NCBI GenBank assembly: GCA_964551525.1
Contig: CAZKCH010000003.1
Span: 1-46,777 of the forward strand
Direction: 5' to 3'
From: an uncultured Candidatus Saccharibacteria bacterium
Lineage (GTDB): Bacteria > Patescibacteriota > Minisyncoccia > Minisyncoccales > GWA2-46-15
DNA length: 46,777 bases
Each line of letters begins with the position of its first letter. Positions within the stretch are counted from its first letter, which is position 1. Positions 10,538 to 15,967 of this stretch are shown here, piece by piece. The position numbers and the translations under genes were made by a program. Below the pieces are notes generated by a model. That model was not told where the DNA came from, did no database searches, and saw nothing but the letters and a program-made list of their open reading frames with translations.

Positions 10538-12304
10538 ATGATTATGCAAAACAAACAACGGCCGGCGCATCGTCGGACAACTTATCGGCCAACGCGGCGG
10601 CGTTTCCCCGCTCGGCCCATAAATCAATCATGGCCGGATACGCTCAGAGTCATTCCCCTCGGCGGCCAAGAAGAAGTCGGCCGCAACATGACGGTTTTTG
10701 AATACGGCCAAGACATTGTTGTTTTAGACATGGGCCTGCAATTTCCAGAAGAAGACATGCCCGGCATTGATTATATCATTCCCGATGCCCGCTATCTCTA
10801 CGGCAAAGAAAGAAACATCAAAGGCGTGATTTTAACTCACGGCCACCTTGACCATATCGGCGCTATTCCCCATTTGTTGCCACGCCTCAATTGGCCCATG
10901 GTTTACGGCAGTAAAATGACTCTGGCTTTGGTCCGCAAGCGCTTAGAAGAAGCCCGGCTTTTAAGCTTTTTCAAATCGCAGGAAATCAAATCGCCGGACG
11001 AGGAAATCAATTTGGGCAAATTCAAGATAAGTTTTTTTGCCGCCACTCACAGCATCATGGATTCCATGGGCATTGTCTTGCAGACCCCGGTGGCTAATAT
11101 CATCCACCCGGGCGATTGGCGCTACGACCTGAATCCGGTGGCCGGCCAGCCCACTGACTTTTCCCACCTCTCCCGCTGGAATACGAAAAACGTTCCTTCG
11201 ATTCTGATGATGGAAGGCATCGGCTCCACCAAAGAGGGTTATCAAATACCGGAACGGACAATTTACGAAAATATCAAAAAGATTATTCAGGATGCCCCCG
11301 GCCGCATTATTATTGCTACCTTTGCTTCTATGATAGAGCGCGTCGCCTGGATTGTCAGCATTGCCGAAAAACTCGGTAAAAAAGTGGCTCTCGATGGTTA
11401 TTCAATGAAATCCAATATTGAAATAGCGAAAAAACTCGGCTACGTAAAATTTGATTCCAGCACCTTGATTGATGCCAAACGGCTGAACGATTATCCGGAT
11501 AATAAAGTGATTATTGTTTGTACCGGCGCCCAAGGCGAAGACCGGGCGGTTTTGATGAGAATTGCCAATGGCGAACACCGCCAAATCCGCCTCAAAAAAA
11601 CAGATACGATTATTTTTTCCTCCTCGGTCATTCCCGGCAACGAGCGCACCATTCAACGCCTTAAAGACAATCTTTATCGCCAGTGCGATAATGTCATCCA
11701 CAAAGAAATTATGGACGTCCACGGCGGCGGCCACGGTTTGATTGAAGACATCAAGCGCCTGATCCAGGAAGTCAAACCGAGATATTTAATTCCGGTCTAC
11801 GCTAATTATTATTTGTTGAAAGAAGCGGCCAAGGTCGCCATTTCGATTGGTTTTCCCCGCCAAAATATTTTTCTTCTGGATAACGGCAGCGTTCTTGAAA
11901 TAAAATCGCACGGCGTCAGAATCGCAGATAAAAAAATACTGATTGAATATATTTTCGTGGACGGCCTGGGCATCGGCGATATCGGCGAAGTGGTTTTGCG
12001 CGACCGGCAAGTCCTGGCCAAAGACGGCATGTTCGTCGTTATTGCCGTCATTGACCGCAAAACCGGCAAAGTGCTCGGTTCGCCCGACATTATTTCCCGC
12101 GGTTTTGTCTATCTGCGAGAATCAAAAGAATTACTGACGCAAACGAGAAGAAAAGTGGTAGTGATTATCGACCGGGCCGCCAATTCCGGCGGCGCCGTCA
12201 ATTGGACCTATGTCAAAGAAGAAATCCGGGAAAAAGTAGGCGGCTTTTTGTACCAGCAAACCCAGCGCCGACCAATGATCCTCCCCGTGGTTATTGAGGT
12301 TTAG
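10538..12304 (+). CDS. rnj: Ribonuclease J (metallo-beta-lactamase / beta-CASP)
   Basis: 588 aa with motifs THGHLDHIG, the beta-CASP region and a C-terminal domain, typical of RNase J. Confidence 0.9.
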   Translation: MIMQNKQRPAHRRTTYRPTRRRFPARPINQSWPDTLRVIPLGGQEEVGRNMTVFEYGQDIVVLDMGLQFPEEDMPGIDYIIPDARYLYGKERNIKGVILTHGHLDHIGAIPHLLPRLNWPMVYGSKMTLALVRKRLEEARLLSFFKSQEIKSPDEEINLGKFKISFFAATHSIMDSMGIVLQTPVANIIHPGDWRYDLNPVAGQPTDFSHLSRWNTKNVPSILMMEGIGSTKEGYQIPERTIYENIKKIIQDAPGRIIIATFASMIERVAWIVSIAEKLGKKVALDGYSMKSNIEIAKKLGYVKFDSSTLIDAKRLNDYPDNKVIIVCTGAQGEDRAVLMRIANGEHRQIRLKKTDTIIFSSSVIPGNERTIQRLKDNLYRQCDNVIHKEIMDVHGGGHGLIEDIKRLIQEVKPRYLIPVYANYYLLKEAAKVAISIGFPRQNIFLLDNGSVLEIKSHGVRIADKKILIEYIFVDGLGIGDIGEVVLRDRQVLAKDGMFVVIAVIDRKTGKVLGSPDIISRGFVYLRESKELLTQTRRKVVVIIDRAANSGGAVNWTYVKEEIREKVGGFLYQQTQRRPMILPVVIEV

Positions 12305-12330
12305 TAAAACAAAGGCCTCTCTTTCTCCCC

Positions 12331-12359
12331 TTGACAAGCTTTTTGGTTTCAGTTATTAT
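12331..12359 (+). promoter_or_regulatory. Sigma-70-type promoter candidate for the trpR/yerC-like gene
   Basis: TTGACA (12331-12336), a 17-nt spacer, then TATTAT (12354-12359). Confidence 0.5.
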
Positions 12360-12363
12360 ACAG

Positions 12364-12375
12364 CATACTAGTATG
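12364..12375. promoter_or_regulatory. Perfect 12-bp palindrome CATACTAGTATG (candidate TrpR-type operator)
   Basis: It lies 5 nt downstream of the -10 hexamer and so overlaps the expected transcription start. Its centre is ACTAGT, the hexamer repeated in E. coli trp operators. Confidence 0.4.
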
Positions 12376-12398
12376 TGGTATATAACACTAAACAGAGA

Positions 12399-12659
12399 AT
12401 GGTTATGAACTGGGAATTTGTCGATGAATTTATCGAAGCCCTGCTTCGCCTCAAAACCCATAAAGAGGCGCGGGATTTCCTCATGGGCATTTTAACGCCC
12501 AAGGAGCTACAAGAAATCCCCACCCGGTTGCAGATCGTCAAAATGCTCAAGCGTCGCCTCCCCCAGTACCGGATCGCGGAAAAACTGAAAGTCGGCATCG
12601 GCACCATCACCCGCGGCTCGAATGAAATAAAAAAAGGGCGATTTAAACAAGTGAAATAA
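12399..12659 (+). CDS. TrpR-family / YerC-YecD-like DNA-binding protein
   Basis: About 86 aa. The pattern (ARDFLMGILTPKELQEIPTRLQIVKML...YRIAEKLKVGIGTITRGSN) matches the Trp-repressor-like YerC/YecD family. The start is uncertain: ATG 12399 or 12405, or GTG 12375. Confidence 0.75.
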   Translation: MVMNWEFVDEFIEALLRLKTHKEARDFLMGILTPKELQEIPTRLQIVKMLKRRLPQYRIAEKLKVGIGTITRGSNEIKKGRFKQVK

Positions 12660-12660
12660 A

Positions 12661-12756
12661 ATGAAAAACCAATCAGATAAAAATTTATTAATAACAAATA
12701 GCTGGTGGTGGACTTTGCAGGCCTATCCGCAAAGTCCTGGTTTCGTGTTGACTTAA
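12661..12756 (+). CDS. Putative Trp leader peptide (31 aa, MKNQSDKNLLITNSWWWTLQAYPQSPGFVLT)
   Basis: The ATG lies 1 nt after the upstream TAA stop. There are three consecutive TGG codons at 12703-12711, followed by alternative hairpins and a terminator. Confidence 0.55.
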   Translation: MKNQSDKNLLITNSWWWTLQAYPQSPGFVLT

Positions 12757-12811
12757 TATATTTTTATATAGCCATCGAAACTTCTCTCGGACTGCGCGGG
12801 AGGAGTTTTTT
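12710..12811 (+). promoter_or_regulatory. Candidate transcription attenuator (segments 1-4 ending in an intrinsic terminator at 12780-12811)
   Basis: Pairing 1:2 is 12710-12718 with 12729-12737 (9 bp). Pairing 2:3 is 12733-12745 with 12776-12793 (5 + 7 bp). Pairing 3:4 is 12780-12789 with 12797-12806 (10 bp including 2 G-U), followed by TTTTTTGTTTG. Confidence 0.55.
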
Positions 12812-12910
12812 GTTTGTGTTGATGGTTAGATGTTTTTAGTAAAAATGCATAACCACCAGCACGAATGTCGTGCTGGCTTGTTCTTTCAAAATCAAACAAA
12901 AGGAGAAAAT

Positions 12911-14071
12911 ATGGAAGCCAAACATTTACTAAAAGACCATGCATATCAAAATATTCCGCTCACGTTTAAGGAGGCGTATCTTCTGGGGCTATACGCCCTT
13001 GAGGGATGTGCGGGTAATCAACTTGCACAGATTCAGAGTATTGCGGTTCTCTCTGCATTACACACTCATTCCACATACGCATGGCAGTGGAGCGAGGTGG
13101 CCGAATGTCATCACGGACACCGATTACCCCCAAATGCCGCCGAACAAATCGCAGGTGTCTGTGCCGCGGTGTTTCAAAAAGACATCGCAATATCCCAATT
13201 TGGGTTTCTTAAACCCAATATCCCCTATGCAATGGATAATTGCGGTATGGGAGGAGACCTCGTCGTGACGGCAAATGTAAGCACTATTGCTGCCCTCATC
13301 GCTTCGGCTGCAGGAATCCCAATGTGTAAACACGGATCGCCCGCGAATGCCGACAATGGCCACCACGGCAGTTCTGATTTTATCTCTCTGCTCGGTATCA
13401 GCACATACGCGACGAGAGATGAAGTCGAAAAGTGTGTTGAGGCGGAAAACTTCGGCTACACAGAAGCTTTAGATACTCGCTACAAACGGATTCACTTACA
13501 AACCCACGAAGTTGCAAGACTCCCGCACATGAACGACATCATCGGACCAATAACGAATCCGTTATCGGCACAACTCATGACACGGCGAGTGCTGGGCGTA
13601 AATCATCTAATCTCTCCGCGTATAGTTGCCGAGGCGTATCAAGTTCTCAATAAACACGGGGTGACAAATCTCCAACACGGCCTTTTCGTTCGCGGCTTCA
13701 CTGATAATTGTCGCTACGAAGGCGTGGATGAGGCTTCCATCTGCGGAGGAGGCACACAAGTTGCAGAGCTTCAAGATGGAACAATCCACGAATATCACCT
13801 CGATGCGCTCGATTTCGGACTCAGCTCTGTTTCACCTACGACAATATCTCCGCCGCACGGAATGAGCAAGGGCGATTTCTCTCTTAGAATCTTAAAAGGA
13901 GAAATCATCGGTCCCCCTCTTGAAATGGTTCTGGTCAACGCCGCACTTCTTTTTTATCTTGCTGAACGCTCACAAGATTTAAAAGAATGCTACGCTATGG
14001 CAAGGGTAGTACAAATGGCCGGTAGAGCATACGGAAAAGCTCTACGTCTTCGCCAAAGATTGCCCAAATAA
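12911..14071 (+). CDS. Divergent anthranilate phosphoribosyltransferase-like protein (TrpD / glycosyltransferase family 3)
   Basis: 386 aa from the ATG at 12911, which is preceded by AAAGGAG. TrpD-like blocks are DNCGMGGD, NVSTIAALIASAAG, KHGSP...GSSDFISLLGI, NDIIGPITNPL and GVDEASI...VAELQDG, with altered catalytic-loop residues. It is visibly more GC-rich than its neighbours. Confidence 0.72.
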   Translation: MEAKHLLKDHAYQNIPLTFKEAYLLGLYALEGCAGNQLAQIQSIAVLSALHTHSTYAWQWSEVAECHHGHRLPPNAAEQIAGVCAAVFQKDIAISQFGFLKPNIPYAMDNCGMGGDLVVTANVSTIAALIASAAGIPMCKHGSPANADNGHHGSSDFISLLGISTYATRDEVEKCVEAENFGYTEALDTRYKRIHLQTHEVARLPHMNDIIGPITNPLSAQLMTRRVLGVNHLISPRIVAEAYQVLNKHGVTNLQHGLFVRGFTDNCRYEGVDEASICGGGTQVAELQDGTIHEYHLDALDFGLSSVSPTTISPPHGMSKGDFSLRILKGEIIGPPLEMVLVNAALLFYLAERSQDLKECYAMARVVQMAGRAYGKALRLRQRLPK

Positions 14072-14076
14072 GTTAA

Positions 14077-14118
14077 GGGGCGATGATTTCTCTCATCGCC
14101 CCCACCTCTTTCCTTTTA
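14077..14118 (+). terminator. Terminator candidate after the trpD-like gene
   Basis: A 10-bp stem GGGGCGATGA / TCATCGCCCC with a 6-nt loop, 6 nt after the stop, followed by the pyrimidine/T-rich CACCTCTTTCCTTTT. Confidence 0.5.
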
Positions 14119-14153
14119 GGAATTGGAAATAAGTTTTATAATTCAATTGAGAT

Positions 14154-14972
14154 ATGATTTTAGCTAAAATTTTCAAGAAAAATAAAAACATAACAATAGG
14201 AGCGATTCATTTGCCGCCGCTTTTGGGCTACAAAAACTTCCCAGGTTTTAATGTTGCGCTTAAAAACGCTCTTGACGACCTAAAAGCATTTGAAAATGGT
14301 GGAGCAAATGGAATTATTTTCGAAAACAATTATGACATTCCGCACAAAATTTTTGTAGATGCTTCTATTATAAGCGCGATGACTTCTTTGGGGAAAAAAT
14401 TAAGAGAAGCCACGTATTTACCATTAGGCATAAGCGTCCTATGGAATGACTATCGTGCCGCATTATCAATAGCCAAAACGCTTAACTTGCAATTTATTCG
14501 AGTTCCGGTTTTTGTTGATAAAGTAAAAACAAGTTATGGGATCGTAAAAGGAGAACCTAAAAAAGTTATCGATTTTAGGAAATCAATTAATGCGGAAAAT
14601 ATAGCTATATTTACAGACATTCATGTTAAACATGCAAAATTATTATCCAAAAACGACTTGATAACTTCCGCAAAATTAGCTATCAAAAACAAATCTGACG
14701 CAGTAATTATCACCGGCAAATGGACCGGAGATGCTCCCGCCATAGAAAGAATAAAGTCCCTGAGAAAAAGTATCGGCACATTTCCAATTTTAGTCGGAAG
14801 CGGAACAGATAAAGATAATATCAAAACCTTATTTCAATTTGCCAATGGGGCAATAATAAGCACTTCTTTGAAAAATGGCTTAAGAAAAAATGGTGAGATC
14901 AACGTGAAACCCTACGCACAAAGGATAAACCCGAATAAAGTGAGGAGCTTAATTAATAGTATTATGGTATAA
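14154..14972 (+). CDS. BtpA/SgcQ family TIM-barrel protein
   Basis: 272 aa. The N-terminal IGAIHLPPLLGY motif and the overall pattern are typical of the BtpA family (PF03437). The gene is very AT-rich relative to its neighbours. Confidence 0.75.
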   Translation: MILAKIFKKNKNITIGAIHLPPLLGYKNFPGFNVALKNALDDLKAFENGGANGIIFENNYDIPHKIFVDASIISAMTSLGKKLREATYLPLGISVLWNDYRAALSIAKTLNLQFIRVPVFVDKVKTSYGIVKGEPKKVIDFRKSINAENIAIFTDIHVKHAKLLSKNDLITSAKLAIKNKSDAVIITGKWTGDAPAIERIKSLRKSIGTFPILVGSGTDKDNIKTLFQFANGAIISTSLKNGLRKNGEINVKPYAQRINPNKVRSLINSIMV

Positions 14973-14992: not shown

Positions 14993-15967
14993 ATGCGCAT
15001 ATTTTCGGGAATACAACCGACGGGCGCCTTGCACATCGGCAACTACCTGGGCGCCATCAGGCAATTTGTTGAACTTCAGGAAAAAAATGAGTGTGTTTTT
15101 AGCATTGTCGATTTGCACGCCATGACCGCGCCGTATAAAGCCGAGGAAATGCCCCAAAATGTCTTGGATGCCGCCGTCGCCTATATGGCCTCGGGCATTG
15201 ATCCGGAAAAATCAATCCTTTTTGTCCAATCGCAGGTGCCGGAACACACGGAATTGGCCTGGATTTTGAATTGCGTCACCCCGGCCGGGGATTTGCTGCG
15301 CATGACCCAGTACAAAGAGAAAGCCAAACAATTCAAAGACAATATCAATGCCGGGCTGATGAATTATCCCGTTTTAATGGCGGCTGACATTCTGATTTAC
15401 AAAACAGAAATGGTGCCGGTGGGCCACGACCAGAGCCAGCACGTGGAATTGGCGAGAACGATTGCCAGAAAATTCAACCAGAGATTCGGCCAAACCTTTC
15501 CTGAACCGAAACTGAAACTACCGGAAGCAGGCGCGAGAATTATGTCTCTTTCCGACCCAAAAAAGAAAATGTCAAAATCAGTCCCTTCTTCCTGCCTTTA
15601 CCTTTTTGACGAACCGGAAACAATCAAAAAGAAAATTATGTCCGCGGTTACCGATCTGGGCAAAGAAATAAAATTTGATCCGGACAAAAAGCCCGGCATT
15701 GCCAATTTGCTGGTGATTTACAGCTCTTTTTCGGGCAAAACCATTAAAGAATTGGAAAAAAAGTTTAAGGGTTCCGGCTATGGCAAATTCAAAGAATCAT
15801 TGGCTAATCTTTTGATTGAAAAATTAGAGCCATTAAGGCGCAAAAGAAAAGAATTGCTCTCGCGCGAGGTTTATCTTAAAGAAATCTTAAACCAAGGAGC
15901 GAAAAGAGCCCACTCCATTGCCGAGGAAACAATGAAAGAAGTCCGCAAAAAAACCGGCCTGACTTAG
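14993..15967 (+). CDS. trpS: Tryptophan--tRNA ligase
   Basis: 324 aa with a class I HIGH-type motif (GALHIGNYLG), KMSKS and TrpRS-like sequence throughout. Confidence 0.95.
   Translation: MRIFSGIQPTGALHIGNYLGAIRQFVELQEKNECVFSIVDLHAMTAPYKAEEMPQNVLDAAVAYMASGIDPEKSILFVQSQVPEHTELAWILNCVTPAGDLLRMTQYKEKAKQFKDNINAGLMNYPVLMAADILIYKTEMVPVGHDQSQHVELARTIARKFNQRFGQTFPEPKLKLPEAGARIMSLSDPKKKMSKSVPSSCLYLFDEPETIKKKIMSAVTDLGKEIKFDPDKKPGIANLLVIYSSFSGKTIKELEKKFKGSGYGKFKESLANLLIEKLEPLRRKRKELLSREVYLKEILNQGAKRAHSIAEETMKEVRKKTGLT

Follow-up and report, generated by a model that had tools for sequence, protein, structure and literature searches.

A probable leader-peptide attenuator responding to tryptophan upstream of a TrpD-like gene in Parcubacteria

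Introduction

Expression of the trp operon of Escherichia coli is modulated by ribosome-mediated attenuation in its leader trpL (RF00513), according to the model summarised in PMC7755916. An element of the same design was analysed here in a stretch of 46,777 nucleotides (nt) of bacterial DNA (contig CAZKCH010000003.1; the 46.8-kb window hereafter, meaning the whole stretch that was analysed), in which positions 12661-12817, upstream of the gene for a TrpD-like phosphoribosyltransferase, very probably form a transcription attenuator in which translation of a leader peptide by the ribosome serves to sense charged tRNA-Trp. As in E. coli, tandem Trp codons lie at the edge of RNA segment 1, helices 1:2 and 3:4 are opposed to helix 2:3, there is an intrinsic terminator ahead of the first structural gene, and a repressor of the TrpR family goes together with a putative operator with a CTAG core at the promoter. 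The window differs from E. coli in that its leader has no Shine-Dalgarno sequence and contains three Trp codons instead of two, its repressor gene belongs to the operon itself and separates the promoter from the leader, its antiterminator makes use of the terminator loop, a second hairpin switch follows, and the genes regulated are those of a TrpD paralogue, btpA and trpS, whereas in E. coli they are trpEDCBA.

Classical attenuators have also been described before the trp operons and trpS of actinobacteria such as Corynebacterium and Streptomyces (PMC1262725). Tandem-Trp leader peptides and a terminator, here in lineages other than the Proteobacteria, are common to these systems, some of which precede trpS, and the window, and initiation near the 5' end of the transcript is plausible for them too. 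They belong, however, to an unrelated lineage and have no sequence similarity to the window element, whereas the attenuators of the candidate phyla radiation (CPR) occur in genomes thought to lack amino-acid biosynthesis. In Chlamydia trachomatis, also a reduced host-dependent bacterium, a repressor gene, a regulatory intergenic region and Trp-related genes follow one another (trpR-intergenic-trpBA); the annotated chlamydial TrpL has no consecutive Trp codons, is unvalidated and makes a poor-looking attenuator (PMC7755916), whereas the leader of the window is canonical and conserved. Finally, a Trp T-box has the same input, the charging of tRNA-Trp, and the same output, an antiterminator or a terminator, and is found at the same position in at least 34 related loci, but it binds the tRNA directly, whereas in the window sensing would be carried out by a translating ribosome.

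Amino-acid biosynthesis is thought to be missing from CPR bacteria, which are also credited with few regulators. The window would represent a Parcubacteria genome with a complete two-level tryptophan circuit of the E. coli style, in which a TrpR-like repressor and its operator are combined with a leader-peptide attenuator.

Results and discussion

The leader open reading frame (ORF) of the window comprises 31 codons (MKNQSDKNLLITNSWWWTLQAYPQSPGFVLT) at 12661-12756, with its stop codon at 12754-12756, and the three consecutive TGG (Trp) codons taken as the sensing site are located at 12703-12711; this and all the features described below are on the forward strand, the operator being a palindrome. 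The ATG at 12661 lies one base past the TAA (12657-12659) of a TrpR/YerC-like gene (context TAAAATG), and the leader is probably translated by coupling to that stop codon. The coordinates assigned in the initial annotation to the ORF, the TGG codons, the pairing segments and the terminator all agree with the sequence and with the ORF table. A chance origin of the three Trp codons had there been considered very unlikely, and the codon statistics bear this out: Trp represents 0.94% of the 12,481 codons in 20 ORFs of the window, two adjacent Trp residues occur in none of these ORFs, the probability of three in a row within 31 codons is about 2.4e-5, and TGGTGGTGG is found once in the window when both strands are counted.

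Four pairing segments can be recognised in the RNA that follows. Segment 1 (GGACTTTGC, 12710-12718) overlaps the last Trp codon and forms helix 1:2 in the minimum-energy fold. Its partner, segment 2 (12726-12745), is made up of GCAAAGTCC (12729-12737) plus GGTTTCG (12739-12745) and can pair either with segment 1 or with segment 3. The latter (12776-12799) covers the flank, the 5' arm and the loop of the terminator, with CGAAACT (12776-12782) and GGACT (12789-12793) as its elements, and its pairing with segment 2 gives the antiterminator. The predicted intrinsic terminator (12780-12817) consists of a stem of 10 base pairs (bp), 12780-12789 with 12797-12806, and the U tract TTTTTTGTTTG, and was detected by a consensus scan as well as by folding. 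Hairpin 1:2 and terminator 3:4, both as originally described, are present in the minimum-energy and in the centroid folds, with fold z-scores of -2.7 for 12700-12830 and -4.0 for 12657-12915, and the helix energies are -13.5 kcal/mol for 1:2, -9.6 kcal/mol for 2:3 and -14.0 kcal/mol for 3:4.

The transcript was then folded from the leader ATG with no ribosome, with a ribosome footprint at the stop codon, or with 12690-12722 masked as if a ribosome were stalled on the three Trp codons. With no ribosome or with the stop-codon footprint, the fold consisted of hairpin 1:2 plus the terminator, in line with the proposal that a ribosome at the stop codon favours termination. The stall mask flipped this fold, with the antiterminator becoming the minimum-energy structure both before the 3' arm was made and with the complete terminator; in the latter case, the partners of segment 2 are CGAAACU, the GGACU of the terminator loop and, in a CCGC:GCGG helix, the first nucleotides of the 3' arm. 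The stop codon is located 9 nt past segment 2, and the last Trp codon overlaps segment 1. The antiterminator as first drawn, between segments 2 and 3, needs one correction: its conserved core is the pairing of segment 2 with the terminator loop, which is weaker in the window than in the relatives and is made up for here by the helix GGTTTCG:CGAAACT.

Conservation was analysed in about 145 related loci, taken from species-representative genomes (L001-L067) and metagenome contigs (L068-L147). A short ORF with WW, WWW or an in-frame W-x3-W was found in at least 33 of them at a constant spacing ahead of the TrpD-like gene (among them MKSNRSIISLNWWWALQTYSQSPSFALA, MIIRLDVRLSSWWWLFVTHP, MGQTTAKRKAWWALRNP, MNIVRKMSAWWAMKSLRT, MDYQNSINQTWRRSWHASLLSCDFVLV and MKSSKQTIALNWWWTSYLSP), so that the comparison of relatives advised in the initial annotation finds the tandem Trp codons conserved in frame. 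On the coding strand between -350 and -100, TGGTGG was present 23 times in 17 of the first 63 loci, where 3.8 would be expected, and the opposite strand had 2. Each leader has its Trp codons in the frame of an ATG set at a constant distance from the promoter, no stop codon intervenes and, beyond the close relatives, these codons are the only thing that the leader peptides have in common.

In 21 of 24 loci, the in-frame ATG is located 6-24 nt past the -10 box of a promoter of the type TTGAC-N16-18-TAnnnT and has no Shine-Dalgarno sequence, which implies leaderless or very-short-leader translation initiation in these Parcubacteria, as judged from the layout of the loci. Such near-leaderless ORFs were seen in L068, L073, L025, L042, L044, L063 and others, where the structural genes have strong Shine-Dalgarno sequences. 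The window and L136 are exceptions, with the leader ATG a few bases past the stop codon of an upstream ORF, an arrangement that suggests translational coupling.

These comparisons bear on two other explanations. If the hairpin and U tract did no more than terminate the yerC-like gene, with the WWW ORF there by coincidence, the position of the element directly 3' of that gene in the window would be accounted for; however, nearly all the relatives lack an upstream yerC and have the leader with its own promoter, followed by the same terminator and gene, and to this are added the low probability of WWW (about 2e-5) and the sixfold enrichment of TGGTGG on one strand only. On these comparative data, the chance reading is already refuted, and we assign it a probability close to nil. 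The small ORF might otherwise encode a functional Trp-rich micropeptide unrelated to the hairpins, and close relatives do have ...IISLNWWW(T/A)L in common, but past them conservation is limited to the Trp codons and to the nucleotides that form the pairing segments, and the peptides range in size from 16 to 31 residues and have unrelated C-terminal ends, which leaves this explanation with hardly any weight.

Covariation was measured in an alignment of the 17 alignable leaders. The terminator was 93% paired, with compensatory changes in 8 of its 10 pairs, helix 1:2 was 87% paired and the helix of segment 2 with the terminator loop 94%, compared to 20-58% when the helices were shifted by 1-3 columns as a control. 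As to the covariation of the stems that the initial annotation had proposed to look for, it is strong for 3:4 but modest for 1:2 and 2:3. The terminator arms vary freely, whereas the loop (GGACTTTGCG), which repeats segment 1, is conserved owing to its pairing with segment 2. Where the loop changes, segments 1 and 2 change with it: the trio of L065 reads GGAACTTTGC, GTAAAGTTCC and GAACTTTGCG, and L004 has GCAAAGCC as segment 2 and GGCTTTGC as the loop. The same topology was found in the leaders of L015, L063, L112, L026 and L136, which are unrelated in sequence.

Minimum-energy folding of relatives with the complete terminator was non-discriminating and was set aside as a test in favour of truncated-transcript folds. 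Under the stall mask, upstream RNA pre-empted a mean of 10.7 nt of the terminator 5' half in 24 loci, a figure that fell to 5.2 nt for a ribosome placed on the stop codon and to 6.9 nt for RNA free of ribosomes, which is a moderate signal for a stall-dependent switch. A covariance model built from the alignment of 17 leaders gave a single match in the window (12691-12818, 109 bits), and in the 0.94 Mb of loci every match with E < 1e-6 lay ahead of the TrpD-like gene and on its coding strand; the matches outside the training set were L006, L084, L119 and L120.

No match to RF00513 or to the other curated leader families was obtained from Rfam at the gathering threshold or, for 12250-13050, at E<=10, where the leader gave hits at chance level only (PyrR, 19.7 bits, E 4.3; microRNA models on a long hairpin at 12812-12867). 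The mechanism is a classical one of a known class, of which the element is an independent member, non-homologous to the curated RNA families.

A different sensor occupies the same place in sister lineages. In at least 34 other loci the T-box core GGTGGNACCGCG was found 110-330 nt upstream of the TrpD-like gene, never alongside a leader ORF. These loci matched RF00230 with E from 3e-12 to 1e-2 and in all cases under the gathering score (27-64 bits vs. 93), probably as a consequence of a short Stem I. Of 30 distinct T-box leaders, 29 have N-UGG-G, where N is U, G or C, in the 3' internal loop of their Stem I, and UGG (Trp) is therefore the only invariant candidate specifier. The presence of two such unlike predicted sensors of tRNA-Trp charging at the same position before orthologous genes gives strong regulon-level support to the reading of the window element as an attenuator.

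The T-box loci include L007, L009, L014, L020, L023, L027, L083, L086 and L087, as well as L097, L103, L115, L117, L141 and others, and standard annotation would miss their leaders, whose scores are below the gathering score. Many of them have a terminator with the 3' arm GAGAAG, then a small hairpin and then the complement CTTCTC. In L007, a tRNA-Trp (CCA) gene (1274-1346) is located directly upstream of a TrpS-like gene, and this pair lies about 2.6 kb upstream of the TrpD-like gene under T-box control. No sensors were found upstream of separately placed TrpS-like genes in the loci.

The T-boxes also bring up the question of whether the window leader could act as an RNA-only switch, untranslated and with its UGGUGG read by a trans factor, either the tRNA-Trp anticodon or an RNA-binding protein. 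UGG-reading T-boxes at the same position and a leader ATG without a Shine-Dalgarno sequence would fit such a switch. However, the window leader has no T-box core, Stem I or Rfam T-box match, even at E<=10, and the T-box hallmarks, a specifier loop in Stem I and GGUGGNACCGCG in the antiterminator, were absent from the window by Rfam and motif search. Neither is there an array of the TRAP type (9-11 (G/U)AG with 2-3 nt spacing), as no run of five or more repeats was found in 12657-12910. Also against such a switch are features of the relatives: Trp codons always in frame with an ATG at a set distance from the promoter without a stop between them, codon spacing kept even in variants such as W-R-R-S-W (L006) and WWWQW (L042), and leader stop codons always in or past segment 1. 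An RNA-only switch is thus very improbable.

The preferred reading, attenuation by a translating ribosome, would work as follows. Transcription would begin at the promoter at 12331-12359 and cross the TrpR/YerC-like gene, and a ribosome finishing at the TAA of this gene would re-initiate at the ATG one base further on and translate the 31-codon leader. When Trp-tRNA is plentiful, the ribosome would clear the three Trp codons and arrive at the stop codon at 12754, segment 2 would be held by segment 1 or lie under the ribosome, the terminator (12780-12806) would form, and RNA polymerase would halt within the U tract (12806-12817). Under a shortage of Trp-tRNA, the ribosome would stall on 12703-12711 and mask segment 1, segment 2 would pair with the terminator flank, the loop and part of both arms, and in the absence of a terminator transcription would proceed into the TrpD-like gene and probably also into btpA and trpS. 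A probable second layer would be repression of the promoter by the TrpR-like protein through an operator of the TACTAGTA type. The four-segment model of the initial annotation agrees with every computational test applied to it: the in-frame conservation of the Trp codons, the covariation, the masked-fold switch and the replacement by T-boxes in sister lineages. The presence of trpS in the operon also speaks for it. The computational demonstration covers the sequence features, the alternative folds and their conservation with covariation, and from these we infer the translation of the leader, termination at 12806-12817 and the response to tryptophan.

Several points weigh against this reading. 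The support is computational throughout. The 2:3 core carries two mismatches in the window, and the extension helix that compensates for them there (GGTTTCG:CGAAACT) is only 62% paired in the alignment. As segments 1, 2 and 3 are mostly conserved in sequence, the covariation of 1:2 and 2:3 is modest and that of the terminator alone is strong. In relatives folded with the full terminator under the stall mask, about half of the loci still have the terminator as their minimum-energy structure, and therefore the switch must operate kinetically, as that of E. coli does. No Shine-Dalgarno sequence precedes the leader ATG, and leader translation then depends on coupling in the window or on near-leaderless initiation in the relatives. 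Between the TrpD-like gene and btpA, a hairpin (14076-14103) and a TATAAT (14137-14142) may uncouple btpA-trpS from the attenuator. Last, a role of the TrpD-like and BtpA proteins in tryptophan supply is unproven.

The promoter from which this operon would be transcribed is of the sigma-70 type, with TTGACA, a 17-nt spacer and TATTAT at 12331-12359 (11 of 12 matches), and no other promoter-like site was found before the leader ORF in the window. The palindrome CATACTAGTATG (12364-12375), the probable operator of the TrpR/YerC-like protein, begins 5 nt past the -10 box. The protein itself, of 84 amino acids (aa; 12405-12659), matches Pfam PF01371 (Trp_repressor) with 74 bits and stays under both NCBIfam cut-offs, those for TrpR and for YerC. 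The core TACTAGTA is unique in the window, and [GA]TACTAGTA[CT] is present in 1-4 copies at promoter-like positions in every related locus that encodes a YerC homologue, namely L003 (201), L038 (2397, 3437 and 3801), L039 (868, 909, 2393 and 2790), L051 (3926) and L081 (576, 584 and 1044), so that with the window six of six YerC-encoding loci have a putative operator of this type. One copy in L038 is located between the -10 box and the leader ATG. The CTAG core of the TACTAGTA palindrome is that of the E. coli TrpR operator. These sites suggest that the YerC-like proteins of CPR bacteria are true Trp repressors with a DNA specificity like that of E. coli, and the operon is probably under dual control by repression and attenuation, as in E. 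coli, with the repressor gene between the promoter and the leader.

A second, three-segment switch (12816-12876), terminator-like in the consensus scan, follows the attenuator. Its order is A (12816-12825), a variable hairpin, B (12853-12862), GAA and C (12870-12876), with CTTGTTCTTTC directly after the B:C hairpin. A:B and B:C are mutually exclusive and both covary, with 87% pairing and compensatory changes in 7 of 10 pairs for A:B, and 93.5% pairing and such changes in 5 of 7 pairs for B:C; the segments were registered by hand, which biases the percentages paired but not the compensatory changes. This switch, which may be a second terminator or a translational sequester, is also present after T-boxes (L022, L100 and L126), in L003 without a leader and, rearranged, in L015, L063 and L112, and it was seen in L006 too. 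In the closest clade, segment A is complementary to the 5' flank of the first terminator (12770-12778 with 12819-12827), a pairing that covaries by eye, which hints that the first attenuator may determine the state of the second switch. In constrained folds of the window, however, B:C formed under both ON and OFF conditions, and the coupling stays a hypothesis based on this complementarity and on that of A to B, as judged by eye in the closest clade.

Between this switch and the start of the TrpD-like gene lies the motif GTTCTTTC (12880-12887), possibly an anti-Shine-Dalgarno sequence and conserved about 25-45 nt ahead of the TrpD-like start codon whichever sensor is present. In the form GTTCTTT(Y)AAAA it is located at about -25 to -60 in most CPR loci, upstream of the Shine-Dalgarno sequence, and nearly all loci that have a T-box or a leader peptide contain it. 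One constrained fold has its UUCUUU paired with the Shine-Dalgarno sequence AAAGGA, AGAGGA is also complementary, and on these grounds the motif may act as an anti-Shine-Dalgarno sequence. It could be proposed from this that the structures act chiefly on translation of the TrpD-like gene or on mRNA stability, through GTTCTTTC and the Shine-Dalgarno sequence and through A:B/B:C, and that the first hairpin and its U tract are an inefficient terminator. A second conserved switch and a GTTCTTT motif between terminator and start codon, downstream of T-boxes as well, and the UUCUUU:Shine-Dalgarno pairing would agree with this, but the first hairpin is a canonical 10-bp stem containing G+C pairs, with six U directly after it and conserved with covariation, and the Shine-Dalgarno sequence is about 95 nt downstream, outside segments 1-4. 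We consider an action chiefly on translation or stability very unlikely.

The first regulated gene (12911-14071) encodes a protein of 386 aa with a Glycos_transf_3 match, a TrpD-like phosphoribosyltransferase paralogue. The initial annotation had called it trpD-like, which holds as regards the family but not as regards canonical trpD: against TIGR01245 the protein reaches 146 bits where the cut-off is 199, and its alignment shows CGMGGD and KHGSP. TrpD proper has the motifs GTGGD and KHGNR. The best sequence matches in the PDB are anthranilate phosphoribosyltransferases, at E = 8.5e-25 or weaker, and the close homologues (65-83% identity) all come from metagenome bins of Patescibacteria or Parcubacteria. 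Among L001-L147 the gene occurs in no group other than the CPR bacteria and, among archaea, the DPANN (Woesearchaeota, Nanoarchaeota, Aenigmatarchaeota and others). The score below the cut-off, the KHGSP/CGMGGD motifs and the CPR/DPANN restriction rule out a canonical trpD, and the protein is a divergent TrpD paralogue whose acceptor is probably different.

The window comes from a CPR bacterium of the Parcubacteria, because the close homologues of the TrpD-like protein are all from Patescibacteria or Parcubacteria and the RpoB of the window is 84% identical to Wildermuthbacteria and Parcubacteria sequences.

The second gene (14154-14972) was assigned to the BtpA/SgcQ family of triosephosphate isomerase (TIM) barrels by a family match and a structure model, and the third (14993-15967) encodes a tryptophanyl-tRNA synthetase (trpS; TIGR00233, 358 bits vs. 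a cut-off of 177). The BtpA model is a confident one of a phosphate-binding TIM barrel, with a predicted local distance difference test score (pLDDT) of 88.7; its fold search returned only generic barrels of that kind (CutC, PriA, HisA/HisF, ThiE, RPE and TrpF) at template modelling scores (TM-scores) of about 0.46-0.63, which give no specific assignment, and a sequence search of the PDB gave no matches. The public gene call (P0241) is of 253 aa, with its start 19 codons downstream of 14154; the start at 14154 (272 aa) is the likelier one, as homologues of 271 aa align with this longer reading over 99% of its length.

In nearly all the loci, btpA follows the TrpD-like gene, and trpS is often close by. 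Genes similar to HAD phosphatases, PfkB kinases and APH are inserted between the pair in L012, L022, L028, L036, L040, L057, L077 and L106. A TrpB2-like gene is located directly upstream of the TrpD-like gene in two loci only, L142 and L114, and TrpB was therefore rejected as a regular neighbour. In the window, the stop codon of the TrpD-like gene is followed by a strong hairpin (GGGGCGATGA-tttctc-TCATCGCCCC), the tail of which is C/U-rich, and then by btpA, whose ATG has no clear Shine-Dalgarno sequence and is preceded at 11 nt by TATAAT; judging from these features, 14076-14153 may contain a partial terminator plus an internal, near-leaderless promoter.

Both sensors name tryptophan as the signal for a conserved CPR/DPANN gene pair of unassigned function, and this signal is a testable lead on how CPR/DPANN symbionts acquire tryptophan. 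As a reasonable guess and no more, a phosphoribosyl transfer followed by a step catalysed by the barrel could feed tryptophan supply. More tentatively, and with considerable doubt, the attenuator and the T-boxes may mark the TrpD-like/BtpA cluster as an unrecognised Trp-supply pathway of ultra-small symbionts, by salvage or short-cut biosynthesis, and the leader may be a two-stage device in which the first attenuator sets the A:B/B:C switch. Meanwhile, the alternation of leader peptide and T-box in related lineages offers a clean natural case of exchange between sensors of tRNA charging. What is new with respect to the classical systems is the CPR lineage, leader initiation that is near-leaderless or coupled, the placing of the repressor gene inside the operon, the swap with Trp T-boxes and the CPR/DPANN-specific gene pair; a full-text literature search, of incomplete coverage, returned no report joining CPR or Patescibacteria to T-boxes, leader peptides or the TrpD-like/BtpA pair.

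An additional arrangement was observed in L119 and L120 (1830-2500), where an extra gene of about 120 aa is located between a complete attenuator (leader MKSSKQTIALNWWWTSYLSP) and the TrpD-like gene.

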